Virus record (IMG/VR): IMGVR_UViG_3300045988_005371
Location: 1-5,895 of that record
From: a virus
Reading direction: 5' to 3' (one strand)
Length of the DNA: 5,895 nucleotides
Below the pieces are notes generated by a model, which was given only the letters and a program-made list of their open reading frames with translations, searched no databases and had not been told where the DNA came from. Positions within the stretch are counted from its first letter, which is position 1. Every line of letters begins with the position of its first letter. The translations under genes were made by a program, and so were the position numbers. This document shows positions 1 through 5,895 of the stretch, one piece after another.

Positions 1-99
1 ATTTTTTTTTTTTATACTGAAAACAGTTAAACAGCACAAAAGTGCTCTTTTACAAAACCATTTATACAAAAATAATTTTTAGGAGGTATATGCTCTGAC
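1..99. repeat. Terminal direct repeat, copy A (identical to 5797..5895); overlap from linearising a circular genome
   Basis: Base-by-base comparison: A + T12 + ATACTGAAAACAGTTAAACAGCACAAAAGTGCTC...AGGAGGTATATGCTCTGAC is present at both ends. Position 1 corresponds to 5797. Confidence 0.95.
81..98 (+). promoter_or_regulatory. Consensus Shine-Dalgarno AGGAGG (81-86) followed by a two-codon mini-ORF ATG-CTC-TGA (90-98)
   Basis: Read directly. The ATG lies only 3 nt after the SD and the stop comes after one sense codon. Confidence 0.5.
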
Positions 100-214
100 T
101 CTCAAAGAAATTAACGCGCTGTTTAGCAACATCCGCAAAATCTTAGCCATGTTGGATAAGATTTACCACGCAGTAGAGGGCAACAAGCCCGAGGAGAAAA
201 CAATGAAGCCCTAG
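95..214 (+). CDS. Hypothetical 39-aa protein with putative non-canonical CTG start (LTLKEINALFSNIRKILAMLDKIYHAVEGNKPEEKTMKP)
   Basis: The frame is open from 83 to TAG 212-214. CTG 95-97 sits 8 nt after AGGAGG. The first in-frame ATG (149) has no SD. The amino-acid pattern looks like an amphipathic helix. Start codon and coding status are unproven. Confidence 0.25.
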   Translation: MTLKEINALFSNIRKILAMLDKIYHAVEGNKPEEKTMKP

Positions 215-250
215 AAATAAACAATAAACAACAAGTCCGAGGTGTAAACA

Positions 251-478
251 ATGAAGGGAAAAACATGGAACGTAAGAGACCAGACCGATACGAACCTTTT
301 GGAAGAACTGACGAGAACCTACAAGGAAATCGACAGCGCATACAAACTGCTACGACAGGCCGCAAAGTACAACGACGCAAAATACTACCTTGACATGGTG
401 TTCAGAAAAAAAGCAAAAGCAACAGAAATCGAGGTAGAAATCCTCAGAAGGGAAGTAAACCATGGGAAAGAGGAATAA
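251..478 (+). CDS. Hypothetical protein, 75 aa, predicted helical and charged
   Basis: ATG start at 251 with GAGGTG 6 nt upstream. It is co-oriented with and overlaps the next gene by 17 nt. I recognise no family. Confidence 0.6.
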   Translation: MKGKTWNVRDQTDTNLLEELTRTYKEIDSAYKLLRQAAKYNDAKYYLDMVFRKKAKATEIEVEILRREVNHGKEE

Positions 479-581
479 AGTCCGCAAGTCCAAAGACGCA
501 AAAATCTACAACAAGACCGCACGAAAAACAAAAGCAATCAACCTTGGCAGCGGAGCAATGCGAGGAGGCATTAGATTATGA
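462..581 (+). CDS. Small highly basic DNA-binding/packaging protein (J / VP8-like), 39 aa: MGKRNKVRKSKDAKIYNKTARKTKAINLGSGAMRGGIRL
   Basis: Below the ORF-track length cutoff, so translated by hand. It has 13 K/R and 1 acidic residue in 39 aa. As I recall, the C-terminal RGGIRL is typical of gokushovirus small basic proteins. Its stop overlaps the next start as ATGA (578-581), and it sits directly before VP5/VP3. Confidence 0.7.
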   Translation: MGKRNKVRKSKDAKIYNKTARKTKAINLGSGAMRGGIRL

Positions 582-817
582 TTAACGTGTATGGCATCTA
601 CGACCAGTGTGCTATGTGCTACATCACCACCATTAACGAGCGCGACGATAAAGTCGCCGAACGCAATTTTAAAATTGCACTGACCGACGAACACAACATC
701 ATGAGCAAGACACCGAGCGACTACCGACTCGTGAGGCTCGCAAAGTTCGACGAGAACAACGGCACTTTTGAAGAAGCAAAGGAGAACATTTTCGATGGCA
801 TTTCGCTCAGTAAGTAA
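578..817 (+). CDS. VP5: VP5-like non-structural protein (gokushovirus ORF5 family), 79 aa
   Basis: GAGGAGG lies 9 nt upstream of the ATG. The layout (short N-terminal beta-like segment, A-x-R-x-F, then P-x-DY-x-L-x-x-L-x-x-FD-x-x-x-G-x-F) matches what I remember of Chlamydia-phage-type ORF5 proteins. Its position between the basic protein and VP3 is canonical. Confidence 0.65.
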   Translation: MINVYGIYDQCAMCYITTINERDDKVAERNFKIALTDEHNIMSKTPSDYRLVRLAKFDENNGTFEEAKENIFDGISLSK

Positions 818-1304
818 CTTCAGAGAAACCAGAACAGCAAAACCAACCGAAGCCGGAGAAAGCGTAAGGCGCACGTACATTTGGGACATCAACGAAAAAG
901 GCGAAAAAGTGCTGAAACTCGACCAGATCATTGACCAACAGGCAGAAATCGACTCCTACTTGGAAGAAACCAAGCTGGAAAACATCATCCGACGGGCAAG
1001 CATCGACCCGAACATCGCGGCGCGAATCGCGCCAGACTTAGGCGGAGGAATTCAAGATTTTACCGAAGCACCGCATACACTCGCGGAAATACAAAACATC
1101 ATGATTCGCGCAGAACAAATCTGGAACGAGGTGCCAAAAGAAATCAAGCTCAAATTTGACAACGACGTGGACAAGTTTATCTCAAGTTTCGGAAGCGTCG
1201 AATGGGCCAAAAACCTTGGTATTATGACGGAAGAGACACCTAAAGAAGAACCCAATCGGAGAGTAGAGACTAGCAAAATAACGAAAACCGAGGAGGAAAA
1301 ATGA
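795..1304 (+). CDS. VP3: VP3 internal scaffolding protein, 169 aa from the first ATG
   Basis: The track ORF begins at a TTG (768). The first ATG is at 795 with AAGGAG 11 nt upstream. The segment DFTEAPHTLAEIQNIMIRAEQIWNEVPKEIKLKFDNDVDKFISSF resembles the conserved gokushovirus scaffold core. The stop overlaps the VP1 start (ATGA 1301-1304). Confidence 0.8.
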   Translation: MAFRSVSNFRETRTAKPTEAGESVRRTYIWDINEKGEKVLKLDQIIDQQAEIDSYLEETKLENIIRRASIDPNIAARIAPDLGGGIQDFTEAPHTLAEIQNIMIRAEQIWNEVPKEIKLKFDNDVDKFISSFGSVEWAKNLGIMTEETPKEEPNRRVETSKITKTEEEK

Positions 1305-3001
1305 ACAGAAACACAGACGCAGGATTTAATCAGGTCCCAAGACTGGACATCACGCGAAGCCGCTTTAAAAGGCGGCAGAACGTAAAACTAACCATGAACG
1401 CCGGACAACTCATCCCGTTTTATGTGGATGAGGTGCTTCCGGGCGATACCTTTAGTGTCGACCAGGCGGCAATCATCCGCATGACAACCCCTATCTTCCC
1501 AGTCATGGATAACTGCTACATGGACATCTATTACTTTTTCACGCCGAACCGCATTCTGTGGAAAAACTGGAAGCGATTTATGGGCGAAAATGACACCGGG
1601 CCGTGGGCACAAAAACAAGAATACACAATCCCGCAAATCAAAGTCCAAGAAAGCGCCGGCAAAAAAGAATTGCCGCTGGAAGGCAGCCTCATGGATTACA
1701 TGGGAATCCCGACGAAAGTATGCAAGGACAAAAGTACAGAATTCGAAGTAAACGCACTGCCATTTAGAGCTTACGCAATGATATGGCAAGAGTGGTTCAG
1801 AGACCAAAATGTAGATAATCCGGCTATTAACAGCGTCGAAGACGCAACAGTAACCTACGCAGACGCCAACGACCCAAAAAACATTGAAAAACTCCTTCAG
1901 GAAGCATATCGAGGCGGCAGACCATTACCAGTAAACAAATTTCACGACTATTTCACCAGCGCACTGCCGAATCCGCAGAAAGCGGGAGAGCCAGTAAGCA
2001 TTCCGCTTAGCGGAAGTGCACCGCTAGGAATGTACAATCCGTCAACAGGAAAAGTAACAATCAACAGCGCCGAAATGAAACAAATCGCAAAAGATGTAGG
2101 ACTGTTAAACTCAGGCAGCACCTTTAACGCCGCAGATTGGGACGTCGGAGACGGGCCAGTTGCAAACAACGGACTGGCAGTGGGAAAAAATACACAGTCC
2201 ACATACACTGGAATAACCTTAGGAGCAGACCTCTCAATGGTCAACGCAACGACTATCAACCAGCTGCGACAGGCGTTTCAAGTACAAAAGTACTACGAAC
2301 AGTTAGCACGAGGCGGCAGCCGATACCGCGAGATGATTTATTCGCTGTTCCATACCAAAATCAGCGATAAAACTGTACAAATCCCGGAGTATCTGGGCGG
2401 TACGCGCATCACAATCAACATGAGCCAGGTAATCCAGACCAGCGGCACAACAGCTGAAAGTCCGCAGGGCAACACGGCAGCAGTATCCGTTACACCGTAC
2501 AACGGCAGTATGTTCACCAAGAGCTTCGAAGAGCACGGCTTTGTTATCGGTGTATGCTGCATCCGGCATGACCATACTTACCAGCAGGGACTCGAACGAA
2601 TGTGGAGTCGGAAAACCAATCTGGATTTTTATTATCCCGTCTTTGCAAATCTGGGGGAACAAGCAATCCTCAAAAAGGAAATCTATCTGAGCGGCACAGA
2701 AAAAGACGAACAGGCATTCGGATACCAAGAGGCATGGGCAGAATACCGCATGAAACCGAACAGAATAAGCGGCAAATTCCGAAGCAACGCAACAGGAACG
2801 CTGGATAGTTGGCACTATGGCGACTATTACACCGAAGCGCCGAGCTTAAGTCAAGCATGGATGAAGGAAGGAGACTCTGAAATCCAGAGAACACTCGCAG
2901 TAGACAACGAACCTCAATTTATCATGGACACGGTCATTGACAACACCAGTGTCAGACCTATGCCTATGTACAGTATTCCGGGTCTCGTAGACCATCACTA
3001 A
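1301..3001 (+). CDS. VP1: VP1 major capsid protein (Microviridae F-type jelly roll), 566 aa
   Basis: AGGAGG lies 4 nt upstream. Hallmark motifs are present: N-terminal RSRF...N.GQLIPFYVDEVLPGDTF, then TINQLRQAFQVQKYYEQLARGGSRYREMIYSLF, and a YQEAWAEYR-type C-terminal region. Confidence 0.97.
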   Translation: MNRNTDAGFNQVPRLDITRSRFKRRQNVKLTMNAGQLIPFYVDEVLPGDTFSVDQAAIIRMTTPIFPVMDNCYMDIYYFFTPNRILWKNWKRFMGENDTGPWAQKQEYTIPQIKVQESAGKKELPLEGSLMDYMGIPTKVCKDKSTEFEVNALPFRAYAMIWQEWFRDQNVDNPAINSVEDATVTYADANDPKNIEKLLQEAYRGGRPLPVNKFHDYFTSALPNPQKAGEPVSIPLSGSAPLGMYNPSTGKVTINSAEMKQIAKDVGLLNSGSTFNAADWDVGDGPVANNGLAVGKNTQSTYTGITLGADLSMVNATTINQLRQAFQVQKYYEQLARGGSRYREMIYSLFHTKISDKTVQIPEYLGGTRITINMSQVIQTSGTTAESPQGNTAAVSVTPYNGSMFTKSFEEHGFVIGVCCIRHDHTYQQGLERMWSRKTNLDFYYPVFANLGEQAILKKEIYLSGTEKDEQAFGYQEAWAEYRMKPNRISGKFRSNATGTLDSWHYGDYYTEAPSLSQAWMKEGDSEIQRTLAVDNEPQFIMDTVIDNTSVRPMPMYSIPGLVDHH

Positions 3002-3011
3002 GAAAGGGGGA

Positions 3012-3041
3012 AGACCCGGGTTTTCCCGGGTCTATTTTATT
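3012..3041 (+). terminator. GC-rich hairpin plus U-rich tail after VP1 (attenuator or partial terminator)
   Basis: AGACCCGGG (3012-3020), TTTT loop, CCCGGGTCT (3025-3033) form a perfect 9-bp stem, followed by ATTTTATT up to the VP2 ATG. Confidence 0.5.
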
Positions 3042-3848
3042 ATGGCGTTAGCAGCAATCGGAAGCGCACTACTCGGAATCGGTAAACAACTGCTCCCGAC
3101 AATCGCCGGAGGTCTCATAAACAAATTCATGGGCGGAAATCTGACAGAGAGCAACGGAGGAAGCCAGCAACACAACCAAAGCTACAGCCAAGGCGGAGGC
3201 CAAAGCAGCAGCGAAAGCGGCGTAAACCGAGCACAAAATCTGCAAGACTGGAATAGCATGCTAGGAGCAATTCAGGGAAACATGCAAAGCCAGCAGAAAT
3301 TTAACCGTCGAAGCATGTTCGAACAGATGGGCTACAACACCATGGCAGCAATCACACAAGGTGTATATAACCAGATAAGTAACAATGCAGCGATGAGCTA
3401 CAACAGCGCAGAGGCGGCAAAAAATCGTGCATGGCAAGAGCAAATGAGTAACACAGCATATCAAAGAGCAGTGGAAGATATGCGTAAAGCCGGCATCAAC
3501 CCAATCCTAGCATACCAGCAAGGCGGAGCAAGTACGCCGGGTGGAGCACAAGGCACTATTAGTGGGGCAAGCATGGGACTGGCGAGCAGTAGTGCAGCAA
3601 GCGCAAGTGCTCTAGGAGTAAGTCAAAACCACAACAACACATGGAGCAGGAGCGAAAGTAACTGGTACAACGCAGCACAGGCGGTCGGAGACGCAACAAG
3701 CTGGAGTCATACAAGTGCAGACAAGGCGCTGAAGGAATTCAGAAACGTCCTTAGCAGCCTCGACAACTTAGGAAATCAAGGCGGCCAATACAATCATCAA
3801 AATGGCGGTGGCAAAACTCACGGCGGCGGCGCAGGAAGAGGAAGGTAA
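3042..3848 (+). CDS. VP2: VP2 minor capsid / DNA pilot protein, 268 aa
   Basis: Hydrophobic N-terminus (MALAAIGSALLGIGKQLLPTIAGGLI). Q/S/G-rich low-complexity segments. Conserved motif MSNTAYQRAVEDMRKAGINPILAY typical of gokushovirus VP2. Located right after VP1. Confidence 0.85.
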   Translation: MALAAIGSALLGIGKQLLPTIAGGLINKFMGGNLTESNGGSQQHNQSYSQGGGQSSSESGVNRAQNLQDWNSMLGAIQGNMQSQQKFNRRSMFEQMGYNTMAAITQGVYNQISNNAAMSYNSAEAAKNRAWQEQMSNTAYQRAVEDMRKAGINPILAYQQGGASTPGGAQGTISGASMGLASSSAASASALGVSQNHNNTWSRSESNWYNAAQAVGDATSWSHTSADKALKEFRNVLSSLDNLGNQGGQYNHQNGGGKTHGGGAGRGR

Positions 3849-3849
3849 A

Positions 3850-4869
3850 ATGGGATGCAATAAACCATTAATCCGGTTTTATGTACCTCACGACAGAGAA
3901 GCGAGTGGGCGAGTATACTCACTCGCTTCTTTTAACAAAATACATAAGACAAACCTTAGGTATGAAGACCTAATGTACAGAAAAGATGTAATGTTGATAC
4001 CGTGCGGACAATGTACCGGATGCAGACTACGCAAGCGCAAAGATTGGTCAACGCGGATGGAACTAGAAGCATATGGACACAACAAAGAAAGTATCTGGTT
4101 TATCACACTAACTTACGATGATGACCATGTACCAACACAGGACACAAATACAGGCGAAATCTACAAAGGCGGCATAAACATCTGGGAAGGCCTCTCAGAG
4201 CGTCCGAGAACGGCGCAAACTCTAAGCGTAGAGGATACCCAACTATTTATAAAAAGGCTCAGAAAGGCCGTCAAAGAGCCTCTGAGATACTTTTTAGCAG
4301 GAGAGTACGGAGACAACACAGCGAGACCGCACTATCACATGATACTATATGGGTGGTATCCAGACGACTTAAAGCCAATTCACAAATTGTCAAGACACGG
4401 TCATTATACAAGCGATAAGCTAGTAAAAATCTGGGGACAGGGTGCAGTTGACATAGCGCAAGCAACCCCAGAAACATATAATTATGTTGCAGGGTATGTA
4501 ACCAAAAAGCTGTACGGCAACGACAAAAAACGTTACCAAAAAATGGGTTTAATACCACCATTTTGCACAATGAGCCGAAAGCCGGGACTCGGGGACAAGT
4601 GGTTCGAAGACAACCAAACAAGACTCTGGCAGCAAGGGTACATACAACTTACCAACGGCAAGAGAGCGACAATACCAGAATACTATTGGCGGAAACTGGA
4701 AGCCGAAAACCCTGAAAAAGCATGGAGAATCAAGAAGAATCGACAAGAAAAAGCTATAGCGTCCTTAATCGAAAGAAACGCGGAAACCGATAAACCATAC
4801 GCAGAACAGTTAAAAGACAAAGAAGCATCCATGTCGAAGAAAATGAGCAAAGCCAAAGGCGTATTTTGA
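3850..4869 (+). CDS. VP4: VP4 replication initiation protein (HUH rolling-circle endonuclease), 339 aa from ATG 3850
   Basis: Cys cluster PCGQCTGCR (Cys52 at 4003). Motif 1 FITLTY. HUH motif HYH at 4330-4338. Catalytic motif YVAGYVTKK (Y212/Y216/K219, 4483-4506). ATG 3850 follows the VP2 stop by 1 nt and has a GGAAGAGGAAGG purine tract upstream. The 3802 start would overlap VP2 by 47 nt. Confidence 0.95.
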   Translation: MGCNKPLIRFYVPHDREASGRVYSLASFNKIHKTNLRYEDLMYRKDVMLIPCGQCTGCRLRKRKDWSTRMELEAYGHNKESIWFITLTYDDDHVPTQDTNTGEIYKGGINIWEGLSERPRTAQTLSVEDTQLFIKRLRKAVKEPLRYFLAGEYGDNTARPHYHMILYGWYPDDLKPIHKLSRHGHYTSDKLVKIWGQGAVDIAQATPETYNYVAGYVTKKLYGNDKKRYQKMGLIPPFCTMSRKPGLGDKWFEDNQTRLWQQGYIQLTNGKRATIPEYYWRKLEAENPEKAWRIKKNRQEKAIASLIERNAETDKPYAEQLKDKEASMSKKMSKAKGVF

Positions 4870-4879
4870 CACTTTGGTG

Positions 4880-4929
4880 TCACTCAGCCAAGTAACTATC
4901 AAGTAAGCTACTTGGCTGAGTGATTTTTT
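4880..4929 (+). terminator. Strong rho-independent terminator after VP4
   Basis: Perfect 15-bp stem: TCACTCAGCCAAGTA (4880-4894) pairs with TACTTGGCTGAGTGA (4909-4923). The loop is 14 nt and is followed by T6 (4924-4929). Confidence 0.85.
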
Positions 4930-4941
4930 AATTTGTTAAAT

Positions 4942-4981
4942 GCACACGCACGCGCACGTAATCGCGCACGCGCACGTGCAT
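4942..4981. repeat. Two GC-rich alternating purine-pyrimidine tracts containing a 13-nt direct repeat CGCACGCGCACGT (4947-4959, 4965-4977)
   Basis: 4942-4959 and 4963-4981 alternate purine and pyrimidine without interruption. They are bracketed by ATGCAC (4940-4945) and GTGCAT (4976-4981) and embedded in AT-rich sequence. Confidence 0.8.
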
Positions 4982-5010
4982 TATATTATTATTTTTATTA
5001 TTAACTTGTT

Positions 5011-5026
5011 GTAGTAGTAGTAGTAG
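5011..5026. repeat. (GTA)5 trinucleotide microsatellite
   Basis: GTAGTAGTAGTAGTAG read directly. It lies after an ATT/TTA-rich run at 4981-5004. Confidence 0.9.
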
Positions 5027-5037
5027 GGAGTGTTGAA

Positions 5038-5121
5038 ATGTTGAATACTACGAATTTTTATCCTTGGAACGATATTTTTTGGTTAATCTTAATGTTGATA
5101 CTTTTGTGGAAAACTTGTTGA
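5038..5121 (+). CDS. Candidate 27-aa hydrophobic micropeptide MLNTTNFYPWNDIFWLILMLILLWKTC
   Basis: ATG 5038 has GGGAG (5026-5030) 7 nt upstream and the stop is TGA 5119-5121. The segment IFWLILMLILLW is membrane-like. The ORF lies inside the repeat array downstream of a strong terminator, so it may be fortuitous. Confidence 0.25.
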   Translation: MLNTTNFYPWNDIFWLILMLILLWKTC

Positions 5122-5186
5122 ATTGTTGAAAGTGTAGCAATATGCACAAAAACCTTTGTGCAACATTTTGTGGAAAACCTGTTGAA
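5102..5186 (+). repeat. Two 21-nt direct repeats TTTTGTGGAAAAC(T/C)TGTTGAA (5102-5122 and 5166-5186)
   Basis: 20 of 21 positions are identical and the copies are 64 nt apart. Each contains TGTGGAAAA, whose complement TTTTCCACA fits the relaxed DnaA-box consensus TT(A/T)TNCACA. Confidence 0.85.
5143..5162. other. Perfect 8-bp hairpin TGCACAAA-AACC-TTTGTGCA between the 21-nt repeats
   Basis: All 8 pairs were checked. The loop is AACC. Alternative TTTGTG partners exist at 5103-5108 and 5167-5172. Confidence 0.7.
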
Positions 5187-5325
5187 AGTGTTAAAAGTGT
5201 TGAAAAAAGAATTAAAGGCCGTCCGGCAAGCAAAACCGAAAAGTTGCGTCATGCTCTTCGCACGGCGCACCGCGCCTAGCGCATGACCTTCAAGACAAAA
5301 TTCTTCTATTTTTTTTTAAAAAACC

Positions 5326-5354
5326 TTGACTTTTTCCAAAAAATATGATAGAAT
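5326..5354 (+). promoter_or_regulatory. Near-consensus sigma70/sigmaA promoter with extended -10 (TTGACT, 17 nt, TGaTAGAAT)
   Basis: -35 TTGACT at 5326-5331. The spacer is exactly 17 nt. TG is at 5346-5347 and -10 TAGAAT at 5349-5354. A T9A6 UP-like element sits at 5309-5323. A perfect TATAAT also occurs at 5354-5359. Confidence 0.75.
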
Positions 5355-5356
5355 AT

Positions 5357-5373
5357 AATCAAAGAAAGGAAGG
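5357..5373 (+). repeat. 17-nt leader repeat AATCAAAGAAAGGAAGG, copy 1 (contains the SD of ORF 5381)
   Basis: Identical to 5567-5583. Confidence 0.9.
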
Positions 5374-5380
5374 AATTAAA

Positions 5381-5560
5381 ATGAAGCAAAAGGAATACAA
5401 GTTCTTGGCAAAAATCACCTACAACGACGGCAAAGAAGAGTTAAATCCTTTTATCGACTACACGGCAAGCGCAAGAGCGCGAGCCAAAAAAGTAGCAAGG
5501 AGACCAGACGTATACACAGTAAAACTATACAGGATAGACAAAACCGAAGAATTTATCTAA
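5381..5560 (+). CDS. Hypothetical accessory protein, 59 aa (MKQKEYKFLAKITYNDGKEELNPFIDYTASARARAKKVARRPDVYTVKLYRIDKTEEFI)
   Basis: ATG 5381 has an AAGGAAGG SD upstream. The track start at 5345 lies inside the promoter -10 region. It is the first gene of a unit bounded by a promoter and a terminator. I recognise no family. Confidence 0.7.
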   Translation: MKQKEYKFLAKITYNDGKEELNPFIDYTASARARAKKVARRPDVYTVKLYRIDKTEEFI

Positions 5561-5566
5561 AGACTG

Positions 5567-5583
5567 AATCAAAGAAAGGAAGG
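5567..5583 (+). repeat. 17-nt leader repeat AATCAAAGAAAGGAAGG, copy 2 (contains the SD of ORF 5592)
   Basis: Identical to 5357-5373. Confidence 0.9.
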
Positions 5584-5591
5584 CAACAAAA

Positions 5592-5783
5592 ATGAAAAAG
5601 CCTAAACTAAACGAAAAAACCATCACAAGACTCGAAATCTACGGACAAGTATGGTGCAACAAATATTACTACGAGCTGAAAGACTACATAGACACAGAAG
5701 GAAACCGTTACACGATGCTTGAACGGACAAATCTTAGAACCGGAGGCATAGACGAATTCAATTGGGAAGAATACATTAAATAG
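5592..5783 (+). CDS. Hypothetical accessory protein, 63 aa (MKKPKLNEKTITRLEIYGQVWCNKYYYELKDYIDTEGNRYTMLERTNLRTGGIDEFNWEEYIK)
   Basis: ATG 5592 has the same AAGGAAGG SD upstream. The TAG stop lies inside the terminator stem. I recognise no family. Confidence 0.7.
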   Translation: MKKPKLNEKTITRLEIYGQVWCNKYYYELKDYIDTEGNRYTMLERTNLRTGGIDEFNWEEYIK

Positions 5784-5809
5784 GCTTGACAAGCCTATTT
5801 TTTTTTTTT
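5778..5809 (+). terminator. Rho-independent terminator of the two-ORF cassette
   Basis: TAGGCTT (5781-5787), GAC loop, AAGCCTA (5791-5797). Flanking A/T pairs extend the stem to 10 bp. It is followed by T12 (5798-5809). Confidence 0.75.
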
Positions 5810-5814
5810 ATACT
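5786..5814 (+). promoter_or_regulatory. Putative main-operon promoter TTGACA, 17 nt, TATACT, overlapping the terminator
   Basis: Consensus -35 TTGACA at 5786-5791 spans the hairpin loop. The spacer is exactly 17 nt and is mostly the T-tract. -10 TATACT is at 5809-5814, equal to 13-18 in the first repeat copy. It points into the gene block that starts at the 81-86 SD. Confidence 0.6.
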
Positions 5815-5895
5815 GAAAACAGTTAAACAGCACAAAAGTGCTCTTTTACAAAACCATTTATACAAAAATAATTTTTAGGAGGTATATGCTCTGAC
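5797..5895. repeat. Terminal direct repeat, copy B (identical to 1..99)
   Basis: See copy A. Confidence 0.95.

Follow-up and report, generated by a model that had tools for sequence, protein, structure and literature searches.

Why a phage with a genome of less than 6 kb should keep a separate transcription unit for two very small genes is the question raised by positions 5326-5814 of a viral DNA stretch from the IMG/VR collection (record IMGVR_UViG_3300045988_005371, positions 1 to 5,895; hereafter, the window). The window was found to hold a complete circular genome of 5796 nt, with a terminal overlap of 99 nt (1-99 and 5797-5895). A preliminary description, made from the letters alone, had taken the DNA for that of a microvirus, and its core-gene content and the closest GenBank genomes agree with this and place the virus in the Gokushovirinae. 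The same description had proposed that the unit is an accessory cassette with the layout of a phage moron. Morons, in the concept of Hendrix and Juhala, are independent promoter-gene-terminator units found between neighbouring genes of lambdoid and other double-stranded-DNA (dsDNA) phages. The reading favored here, with a probability of about 0.55, is that the cassette is a moron-type accessory unit in a gene-swapping hotspot (the slot), with its two genes, A and B, as independent modules. The anatomy and accessory status of the cassette, taken by themselves, are highly probable.

Predicted transcription signals and leaders of the cassette

The cassette (5326-5814) consists of a predicted promoter, two open reading frames (ORFs) that are each led by a Shine-Dalgarno sequence, and a hairpin followed by a T12 tract. 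All genes of the window lie on the + strand, as do all features described below. The predicted promoter, P1 (5326-5354), is composed of a -35 hexamer, TTGACT (5326-5331), a 17-nt spacer that includes a TG dinucleotide (5346-5347), and a -10 hexamer, TAGAAT (5349-5354). It matches the consensus at 10 of 12 positions, plus the TG of an extended -10 element, and transcription would start near 5361. Directly upstream, the letters read as an A/T tract (5304-5323) made up of T9 (5309-5317) and A6 (5318-5323), whose UP-like label rests on the E. coli UP-element consensus. A perfect TATAAT at 5354-5359 was rejected as the -10 element, because it would be spaced 22 nt from the -35 hexamer.

Promoter-like matches are not enriched in this A/T-rich genome (10 found in the window versus 8.6 expected), and the case for P1 therefore rests on comparison with relatives. 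In nearly all relatives whose slot contains cargo, a near-consensus promoter with TG stands at an unchanged distance from a conserved GC hairpin, so that a promoter directly upstream of the cargo is predicted both in the window and at the homologous position elsewhere. Two promoter alleles were found at this position. All 11 slots whose first gene is A or its remote homologue F2 (see below) carry a TTGACT/TA(G/C)AAT-type allele with an upstream T-run and A-run, two of them with one additional -35 mismatch (TTAACT in L027 and TCGACT in L044), while nearly all other cargo-bearing slots carry a TTGACA-16/17-TATAAT allele. The T9/A6-type tract is present only together with the TTGACT-type allele. 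The promoter allele thus tracks the first gene, indicating that the promoter travels with the first module. The extended -10 promoter with its T9A6 element, as first described, was accordingly recovered in silico, and a promoter at this place is conserved among relatives.

A 17-nt leader, AATCAAAGAAAGGAAGG, is exactly duplicated ahead of the two ORFs (0.01 such duplicates expected), and is part of a 25-nt repeat family, D3. Copy 1 (5357-5373) holds the Shine-Dalgarno sequence of ORF A (GGAAGG, 5368-5373), located 7 nt before the ATG, and copy 2 (5567-5583) holds that of ORF B (GGAAGG, 5578-5583), located 8 nt before the ATG. ORF A (5381-5560; 59 aa) occupies the first position of the slot, and ORF B (5592-5783; 63 aa) the second, with its stop codon inside the terminator stem.

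The predicted cassette terminator (5778-5809) contains a 10-bp stem (5778-5787 with 5791-5800), a GAC loop, and the T12 tract (5798-5809). The hairpin (5778-5800) has a folding energy of -10.1 kcal/mol (z = -3.8), and all of the 19 sequence variants examined fold. Compensatory double changes were observed in 6 of 11 stem pairs across these variants, and 91% of the terminator cells are paired compared with 83% in shuffles, a level that none of 500 shuffles reached and that stands well above slid controls. The stem reads UAGGC/GCCUA in the window, and GAGGC/GCCUC, CAGGGC/GCCCUG or GGGGAU/AUCCCC elsewhere. The hairpin and T12 of the preliminary description are supported in silico by the fold, the z-score and the compensatory changes, and a factor-independent terminator of its own is predicted downstream of the cargo.

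The same DNA contains the predicted promoter of the main operon, P2 (5786-5814), whose -35 hexamer, TTGACA, lies in the terminator stem and loop and whose -10 hexamer, TATACT (5809-5814), follows the T-run. P2 matches the consensus at 11 of 12 positions and is kept in relatives; relatives with an empty slot have a single promoter, at the place of P2. Three signals are overprinted in about 35 nt (5778-5814), where ORF B ends, the terminator hairpin forms and P2 has its -35. In most relatives, B ends with K-E-A-stop written into a hairpin arm, the stop being the TGA of TTGACA; in the window, an earlier TAG has arisen through a G-to-T change, for which the other hairpin arm has a compensating change.

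At the upstream boundary of the slot, the predicted Rep-operon terminator (4879-4930), consisting of a hairpin (4879-4924; inverted repeat I2) and T6, directly follows the stop codon of Rep (VP4). Its fold (-28 kcal/mol, z = -6.0) is kept in relatives, and about 400 nt, with a conserved non-coding region between, separate it from P1. The cassette had been described as insulated by terminators on both sides. Both hairpins are indeed present, but the downstream one also carries the -35 of P2. Because its two ends overlap by 99 nt, the window shows three elements twice, namely the cassette terminator, P2 and the beginning of the first ORF of the operon.

With these signals, a host sigma-70-type RNA polymerase would start at P1 and produce a short bicistronic mRNA with a 20-nt leader, from which A and B would be translated separately, each via its own Shine-Dalgarno sequence. 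Transcription would stop at the hairpin and T12, and P2 would then drive the genes from the small ORF through Rep.

Cargo genes and their exchange

Homologues of ORF A form 28 clusters (61-95% identity) and those of ORF B 17 clusters (56-92% identity), on contigs of about 1-8 kb. A 71-aa form of ORF A reported by gene callers was rejected, because its start (ATG at 5345) lies inside the promoter; the extension is also missing in distant homologues. Pairwise Nei-Gojobori estimates gave a median ratio of nonsynonymous to synonymous substitution rates (dN/dS) of 0.13 among 11 distinct A sequences and of 0.33 among 20 distinct B sequences, with synonymous sites saturated in distant pairs; for B, the ratio reaches about 0.5 between close pairs. 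AlphaFold models are compact and confident, with a beta-beta-alpha-beta fold for A (predicted local distance difference test score, pLDDT, 93.5) and an alpha-beta4-alpha fold for B (pLDDT 93.3). Both proteins are hydrophilic, A being basic (isoelectric point, pI, 9.6) and B near-neutral, and no membrane segment was detected in either (top 19-residue Kyte-Doolittle means of -0.21 for A and -0.33 for B).

That A and B are non-functional passengers, or chance frames in a variable spacer, is hardly credible. Their sequences are orphans, lack known domains and are frequently deleted, as would be expected of passengers, but they are under purifying selection across up to 20 distinct sequences, have conserved Shine-Dalgarno sequences and confident compact folds, and belong to hundreds of homologue clusters. 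A true non-coding frame nearby (5142-5279) shifts frame between relatives, unlike A and B. Purifying selection, compact confident folds and the existence of homologues together identify A and B as real genes, and the two small ORFs first noted at these positions are thereby confirmed. The retention under purifying selection of about 490 nt, or 8% of the genome, implies a real but condition-dependent benefit.

The GC content of the cassette (38-40%) is lower than that of the genome (45%), and the third-position GC content (GC3) of A and B (0.47-0.48) lies inside the range of the core genes (0.44-0.54). The distinct nucleotide composition of a moron was therefore not found, and neither were cellular homologues. 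The core-like GC3 would fit genes that have long resided among those of microviruses and were not recently captured from a host.

The occupancy of the slot was surveyed twice, first through Rep-based loci (48 slots), and second with a 17-nt stretch of the conserved GC hairpin as anchor, which makes the sampling independent of the cargo (83 distinct slots); the two surveys gave the same picture. The slot lies between the GC hairpin and the block formed by the conserved small ORF and p75, the first genes of the main operon. At least eight families occupy it (A, F2, B, C, D, F4, F10 and G), in addition to an M15 peptidase in a sister clade. Among the 83 anchor slots, the most frequent contents are C alone (12), none (10), F4 (9), B (9) and C with F10 (8), followed by F2 (5), F10 (5), F10 with the new family G (4), B fragments (3), B with F10 (3), F2 with F4 (3) and A with B (2); the remainder are rarer combinations. 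Unrelated families thus alternate at one syntenic position. The order of genes is nearly fixed: A or F2 comes first, B, C, F4 or G second, and D, F10 or the M15 peptidase third, the sole exception being a slot with B followed by F2. In the sister clade, whose Rep is about 56% identical, an A homologue is followed by the M15 peptidase. In KT264790, the nearest GenBank genome (86% nucleotide identity across 87% of the genome), the slot has a perfect TTGACA-17-TGgTATAAT promoter, unrelated C (61 aa) and D (56 aa) genes, and a terminator of the same type; the possibility that these genes are divergent copies of B and A received no support from hhalign. Two cargo families without database matches have conspicuous compositions: F4 (55-60 aa) shows a conserved pattern, C-x3-C-x2-C-x-C ... 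C, suggestive of a small protein that binds zinc, and D is strongly acidic (pI 4.4).

These surveys, for which the preliminary description had called, uphold the accessory, moron-like layout that it proposed: the slot is variable among microviruses, and the cassette is absent or replaced in most close relatives, with about one slot in eight empty (10 of 83), other cargo elsewhere, and deletion scars. The empty-slot genomes suggest that the cargo can be dispensed with. They also show that A and B are not renamed core microvirus proteins, as all core genes lie elsewhere in the window and both A and B are absent from most close relatives. The notion of a self-contained two-gene unit, by contrast, has to be given up in favor of many alternative genes in a fixed order. 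Of the 83 slots, 4 contain A and 16 an intact B, yet only 2 contain both; B occurs without A in 14, and A also occurs with C, with the M15 peptidase, or alone. A and B therefore appear from their distribution to be independently assorting single-gene modules, rather than an obligate pair. An obligate A-B system, either a toxin-antitoxin or a regulator pair (the latter among the roles first suggested), would agree with the adjacency, predicted co-transcription and similar size of the two genes in the window. The rarity of their co-occurrence argues against both versions, and no toxin or antitoxin match was found in PADLOC or Pfam, leaving such a system extremely improbable and, by the co-occurrence data, largely refuted.

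How the modules move is suggested by the junctions. In relatives with B only, the conserved upstream sequence runs to leader copy 1 and continues from copy 2, such that A is absent precisely between the repeats. Deletion scars, in which only the 3′ end of B is left, were found in five relatives (L003, L045, L048, L051 and L060), and in the empty slot of L018 the -35 of P1 is fused onto the T-run, giving a P1-P2 fusion. By comparison of the genomes, each module is a unit of one leader and one ORF, and such units are gained, lost and swapped. The exchange mechanism inferred from the joints is recombination or template switching during co-infection, at short stretches that the gokushoviruses have in common: the 17-nt leader, the GC hairpin whose end is GCATGACC, and the TTGACA hexamers found in both P1 and P2.

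Exchange extends across lineages. A homologues with 66-76% identity and B homologues with 57-67% identity were found in viruses whose Rep is only 34-57% identical to that of the window, indicating that the modules cross between them. Four genomes (L106, L113, L115 and L120) are mosaics: their Rep is only 42-43%, their VP5 28-29% and their B 57-67% identical to that of the window. Two of them, L106 and L115, nevertheless have a small ORF and a p75 beside the slot that are 79-91% identical to those of the window. The pattern points to recombination, between distant gokushoviruses, of a block that would reach from the non-coding region through the slot into the first genes of the operon. Apparent decay products of slot genes were also encountered, including an F10-like ORF with ATA instead of ATG in L028, and two database proteins (P0188 and P0190) that join an F2 N-terminus to an M15 peptidase C-terminus, or a non-coding frame to an A C-terminus.

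Candidate roles of the A and B proteins

The profile searches, structure predictions and structural searches proposed at the outset were carried out, and yielded confident folds without a significant known match. The initial statement that neither protein has a recognizable motif held up: scans of A, B and five other cargo families against Pfam, PHROG, NCBIfam and PADLOC gave no match, and neither did sequence-profile searches of the PDB with A and B. Foldseek comparisons of the A and B models with the PDB gave no significant match (best E-values 0.18-0.29), and the A model matched only uncharacterised small phage proteins in BFVD. No known defence or anti-defence family was matched in PADLOC, Pfam, NCBIfam, PHROG, the PDB or BFVD, none of which is a dedicated anti-defence library; no such library was searched.

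Relationships were detected among the cargo families themselves. A and F2 are remote homologues (hhalign probability 87%, P = 4e-6), linked by an intermediate sequence (P0194). Both have a pI of about 9.5, a charge of +4.5 and a conserved Lys/Arg-rich helix. A combined A/F2 profile retrieved 459 clusters from 5.8 billion proteins, a large superfamily of basic proteins of the beta-beta-alpha-beta type; the 120 matches listed of these 459 are 59-83 aa long and come from contigs of at most 8.4 kb, and the sole informative name among them is "hypothetical protein [Microviridae sp.]". An exhaustive hidden Markov model search with A/F2 of 1.84 billion representatives returned only 34 proteins, all of 46-113 aa, which are small proteins or deletion chimeras, with no cellular homologues. 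B is loosely similar to F21 and G, sharing an N-terminal helix, MK(K/M)P(K/R)(L/F), at a probability of 24-68%, and a comparison of B with C gave a weak hint only (P = 0.003).

Tentatively, and with odds somewhat below even, each gene may encode a small binder of a host protein that serves counter-defence or host takeover. A and B would be soluble single-domain proteins of about 60 residues, without signs of a catalytic site, that act by binding. Binding to a host protein is favored because the proteins are small, soluble, single-domain and free of catalytic signatures, and because the deletion and swapping of their genes resemble those in accessory regions of dsDNA phages, while microviruses themselves already have methyltransferases for which an anti-restriction role is assumed. 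The usefulness of A and B would vary from one host strain to the next, and this would account for their retention by some lineages, and their deletion by others, of a phage whose genome size is limited.

Several observations weigh against this picture. No cargo family has a known anti-defence relative, so guilt by association is unavailable, and the only recognizable cargo, the M15 peptidase of the sister clade, is lysis-related. The low dN/dS of A (0.13) is unlike that of the usual fast-evolving arms-race protein. Look-alikes of the A model, namely RB69 Dmd, phage PZA p56 and RAM domains, show a non-significant, small-fold resemblance (E about 1 for Dmd and p56). The description as an insulated unit fails for some arrangements, since relatives with C as sole cargo (L012, L015, L022-L025 and L065) have no terminator or second promoter after it, and cargo and main operon there appear to form a single unit driven by the P1 homologue. 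Furthermore, no Rep relatives were found in 185,579 species-representative genomes, and a host was not assigned in this way.

Profile matches to A were considered as a second route to the host and were not trusted. They comprise an 851-bp scaffold of Acinetobacter lwoffii SU1904 (L121) and a 5.7-kb contig binned with Bacteroides sp. CAG:545 (L122), each with a distant A-like gene (42% identity). Contamination or mis-binning is more likely than a true host relationship.

An extension of the host-binder reading, more doubtful than the reading itself, is that the slot is the microvirus counterpart of the anti-defence islands of large phages, with three positions in a set order, each filled by one of several exchangeable genes of about 60 codons. 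An A/F2-like gene would be followed by a B/C/F4/G-like gene and then by a D, F10 or peptidase gene, each product being a stoichiometric inhibitor of a different host target, from either immunity or housekeeping, and shuffling would proceed by recombination at promoter, leader and terminator sequences. If this were true, methyltransferases would no longer be the only counter-defence proteins of single-stranded-DNA phages, and the slot would also yield a collection of very small binders so far found only in microviruses.

The main rival, which is unlikely yet ahead of the remaining alternatives, is phage competition, in which A and/or B, expressed from the replicative form or an episome, would block superinfecting microviruses or other phages, and turnover of the slot would reflect frequency-dependent competition among co-circulating gokushoviruses. 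Presence, absence and allele turnover among near-identical genomes suit exclusion loci equally as well as anti-defence loci, and B is fairly fast-evolving (in close pairs, its dN/dS reaches about 0.5). Exclusion proteins that block injection are in many cases membrane proteins, but A and B have no membrane segment. Signs of a temperate lifestyle were not found either, as judged by the lack of a Rep relative in the same 185,579 genomes. Gokushoviruses have been reported to exclude superinfecting relatives and to persist as immunity-conferring episomes (PMC7062461; Kirchberger 2021, as described in citing papers), although, according to the latter source, the known gokushovirus exclusion determinant sits in VP2 and not in a separate cassette.

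The M15 peptidase that directly follows an A homologue in the sister-clade slot raises the further possibility, a slender one, that the slot is a lysis locus and that A and/or B are soluble inhibitors of cell-wall synthesis or lysin partners. Lysis-associated accessory genes are known in microviruses (PMC9239249; PMC3394797), and the window has no recognizable lysis gene and lacks the 35-38-aa transmembrane ORF that 24 of 40 relatives have. About one slot in eight is empty, however, and L018 and L031 have neither slot cargo nor the transmembrane ORF; moreover, A coexists with the peptidase and does not replace it. The absence of membrane segments from A and B is also inconsistent with a holin or a single-gene lysis protein of the phiX174 E type, either of which contains at least one transmembrane segment.

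The DNA that adjoins the first slot position has features of its own. About 450 nt after Rep are conserved non-coding DNA common to many gut gokushoviruses, and the sequence beyond is not conserved. The approximately 370 nt of 4931-5300 are conserved even in the clade whose Rep is only about 56% identical, and contain a 40-nt GC-rich palindrome (4942-4981), hairpins at 5143-5162 and 5248-5287, six copies of TGTTGAA within 5031-5204, all on the + strand (1.15 expected), and two copies of TTTTGTGGAAAAC(T/C)TGTTGAA. An Rfam scan of the whole window gave no match. The region may be a replication origin or a protein-binding region. A 45-aa ORF at 5142-5279 was rejected as a gene because its reading frame is not conserved; relatives keep the nucleotides and switch frame after about 22 codons (...VENAIRG followed by RPASKTEK... 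or by SSAAGRKVTS...).

This neighbourhood bears on an improbable alternative, less so than lysis, in which A/F2 is a basic nucleic-acid binder that tunes phage replication, transcription or packaging through the adjacent non-coding region, with the TGTTGAA repeats and GC hairpins as targets and B-like proteins as cofactors. The basic character and conserved Lys/Arg-rich helix of A and F2, their first position next to the region with the repeats, and, among the matches listed, the restriction of the superfamily to phage-sized contigs are all consistent with such a role. Most relatives with the same conserved region nevertheless lack both A and F2, so that any self-regulatory role would be dispensable, and no known DNA- or RNA-binding fold was matched by Foldseek in the PDB or BFVD.

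Genomic setting and comparison with known systems

The closest GenBank genomes are Gokushovirinae from human, pig and monkey faeces. Following P2, the window encodes a conserved small ORF of about 39 codons (95-213), the 75-aa ORF p75 (251-478), VP8 (462-581), VP5 (578-817), the VP3 scaffold (ending at 1304), the VP1 capsid protein (1301-3001), the VP2 pilot protein (3042-3848) and VP4/Rep (3850-4869). The small ORF (81-213 region; 39 codons) is 67-97% identical among relatives, where it starts with a GTG immediately 3′ of AGGAGG (AGGAGGTGTTTGCT). The corresponding codon of the window is GTA (AGGAGGTATATGCT), leaving an in-frame CTG at 95 or an ATG at 149 (21 aa) as options, and the start in the window is thus predicted to be non-canonical or shortened.

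A second presence/absence locus was observed between VP8 and VP5, where 24 of 40 distinct close relatives have an ORF of 35-38 aa with a single transmembrane segment (for example, L002 3012-3128) and a conserved C-terminus (...IDIIKNW..). The ORF is missing from the window (581/578 junction) and from 15 others, and its presence is independent of slot cargo. Its product could be a lysis or membrane protein.

Microviruses are among the most abundant phages of the human gut. They are usually described as rigid, with few accessory genes and little exchange (PMC9239249), and the slot shows more trading than this description allows. One lineage of gut gokushoviruses has a hotspot in which at least eight orphan families are swapped, some between distant viruses, with predicted transcription signals of its own and recognizable recombination joints. 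The slot therefore offers a compact entry into how single-stranded-DNA phages handle host defences or each other, and a source of predicted well-folded proteins of about 60 residues.

The resemblance to phage morons is close in several respects. The cassette has a predicted sigma-70-type promoter and intrinsic terminator, lies between blocks that are adjacent in empty-slot relatives, and contains small genes that are not needed by the virion or replication modules. Unlike morons, it belongs to a single-stranded-DNA microvirus genome of about 5.8 kb with a tight packaging limit; its composition is not foreign and its genes have no cellular homologues; its cargo is drawn from a microvirus-only gene pool in an ordered series of alternatives; and its terminator also serves as the -35 of the promoter that follows. 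Classic morons are typically expressed from a prophage, a feature that does not apply to the cassette or is not known for it.

Accessory regions of dsDNA phages are variable hotspots that are often non-essential and rich in genes for counter-defence and host modification (bioRxiv 10.1101/2023.04.06.535777). The slot is likewise a variable cluster of small, seemingly non-essential genes with rapid turnover, conserved flanks and horizontal exchange, but, in contrast to the anti-defence hotspots of dsDNA phages, no slot family has a known counter-defence member. Dmd of T4 and RB69, a 60-aa antitoxin directed against RnlA/LsoA (PDB 5i8j), is similar to ORF A in size and in its small alpha/beta fold; the Foldseek alignment (query-normalised template modeling score 0.68, E = 1.1, root-mean-square deviation 5.8 Å, no sequence similarity) amounts to a resemblance only.

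Among microviruses, accessory repertoires have been described as limited and gene exchange as rare, methyltransferases are thought to evade restriction, and proteins of about 65 aa that connect microvirus families have been mentioned as unexplained, without being analysed (PMC9239249). Like the known accessory genes, M15 peptidases and DNA methyltransferases (PMC3394797; PMC9239249), A and B are optional additions to the core set, and an M15 peptidase fills the very same slot in the sister clade. In contrast to these enzymes, A and B are orphans of about 60 aa that have neither an enzyme domain nor cellular relatives, and, compared with the limited exchange described in PMC9239249, the slot shows at least eight families and frequent exchange. 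The hypervariable regions described in gokushoviruses lie in VP1, in VP2 and in a VP8-VP2 spacer of enterobacterial prophages (PMC7062461), none of which is the cassette slot. A hypervariable part of VP2 confers superinfection exclusion, according to papers that cite Kirchberger et al. 2021 PNAS. As far as that secondhand account goes, the slot is comparable in being a hypervariable, probably conflict-driven gokushovirus segment; it differs in being a separate unit of free-standing small genes after Rep, rather than part of a structural gene (VP2, 3042-3848; cassette, 5326-5814). Morons and accessory hotspots as such are well known in dsDNA phages. In the literature searched, neither an accessory hotspot of this kind for Microviridae nor a description of the slot was found.

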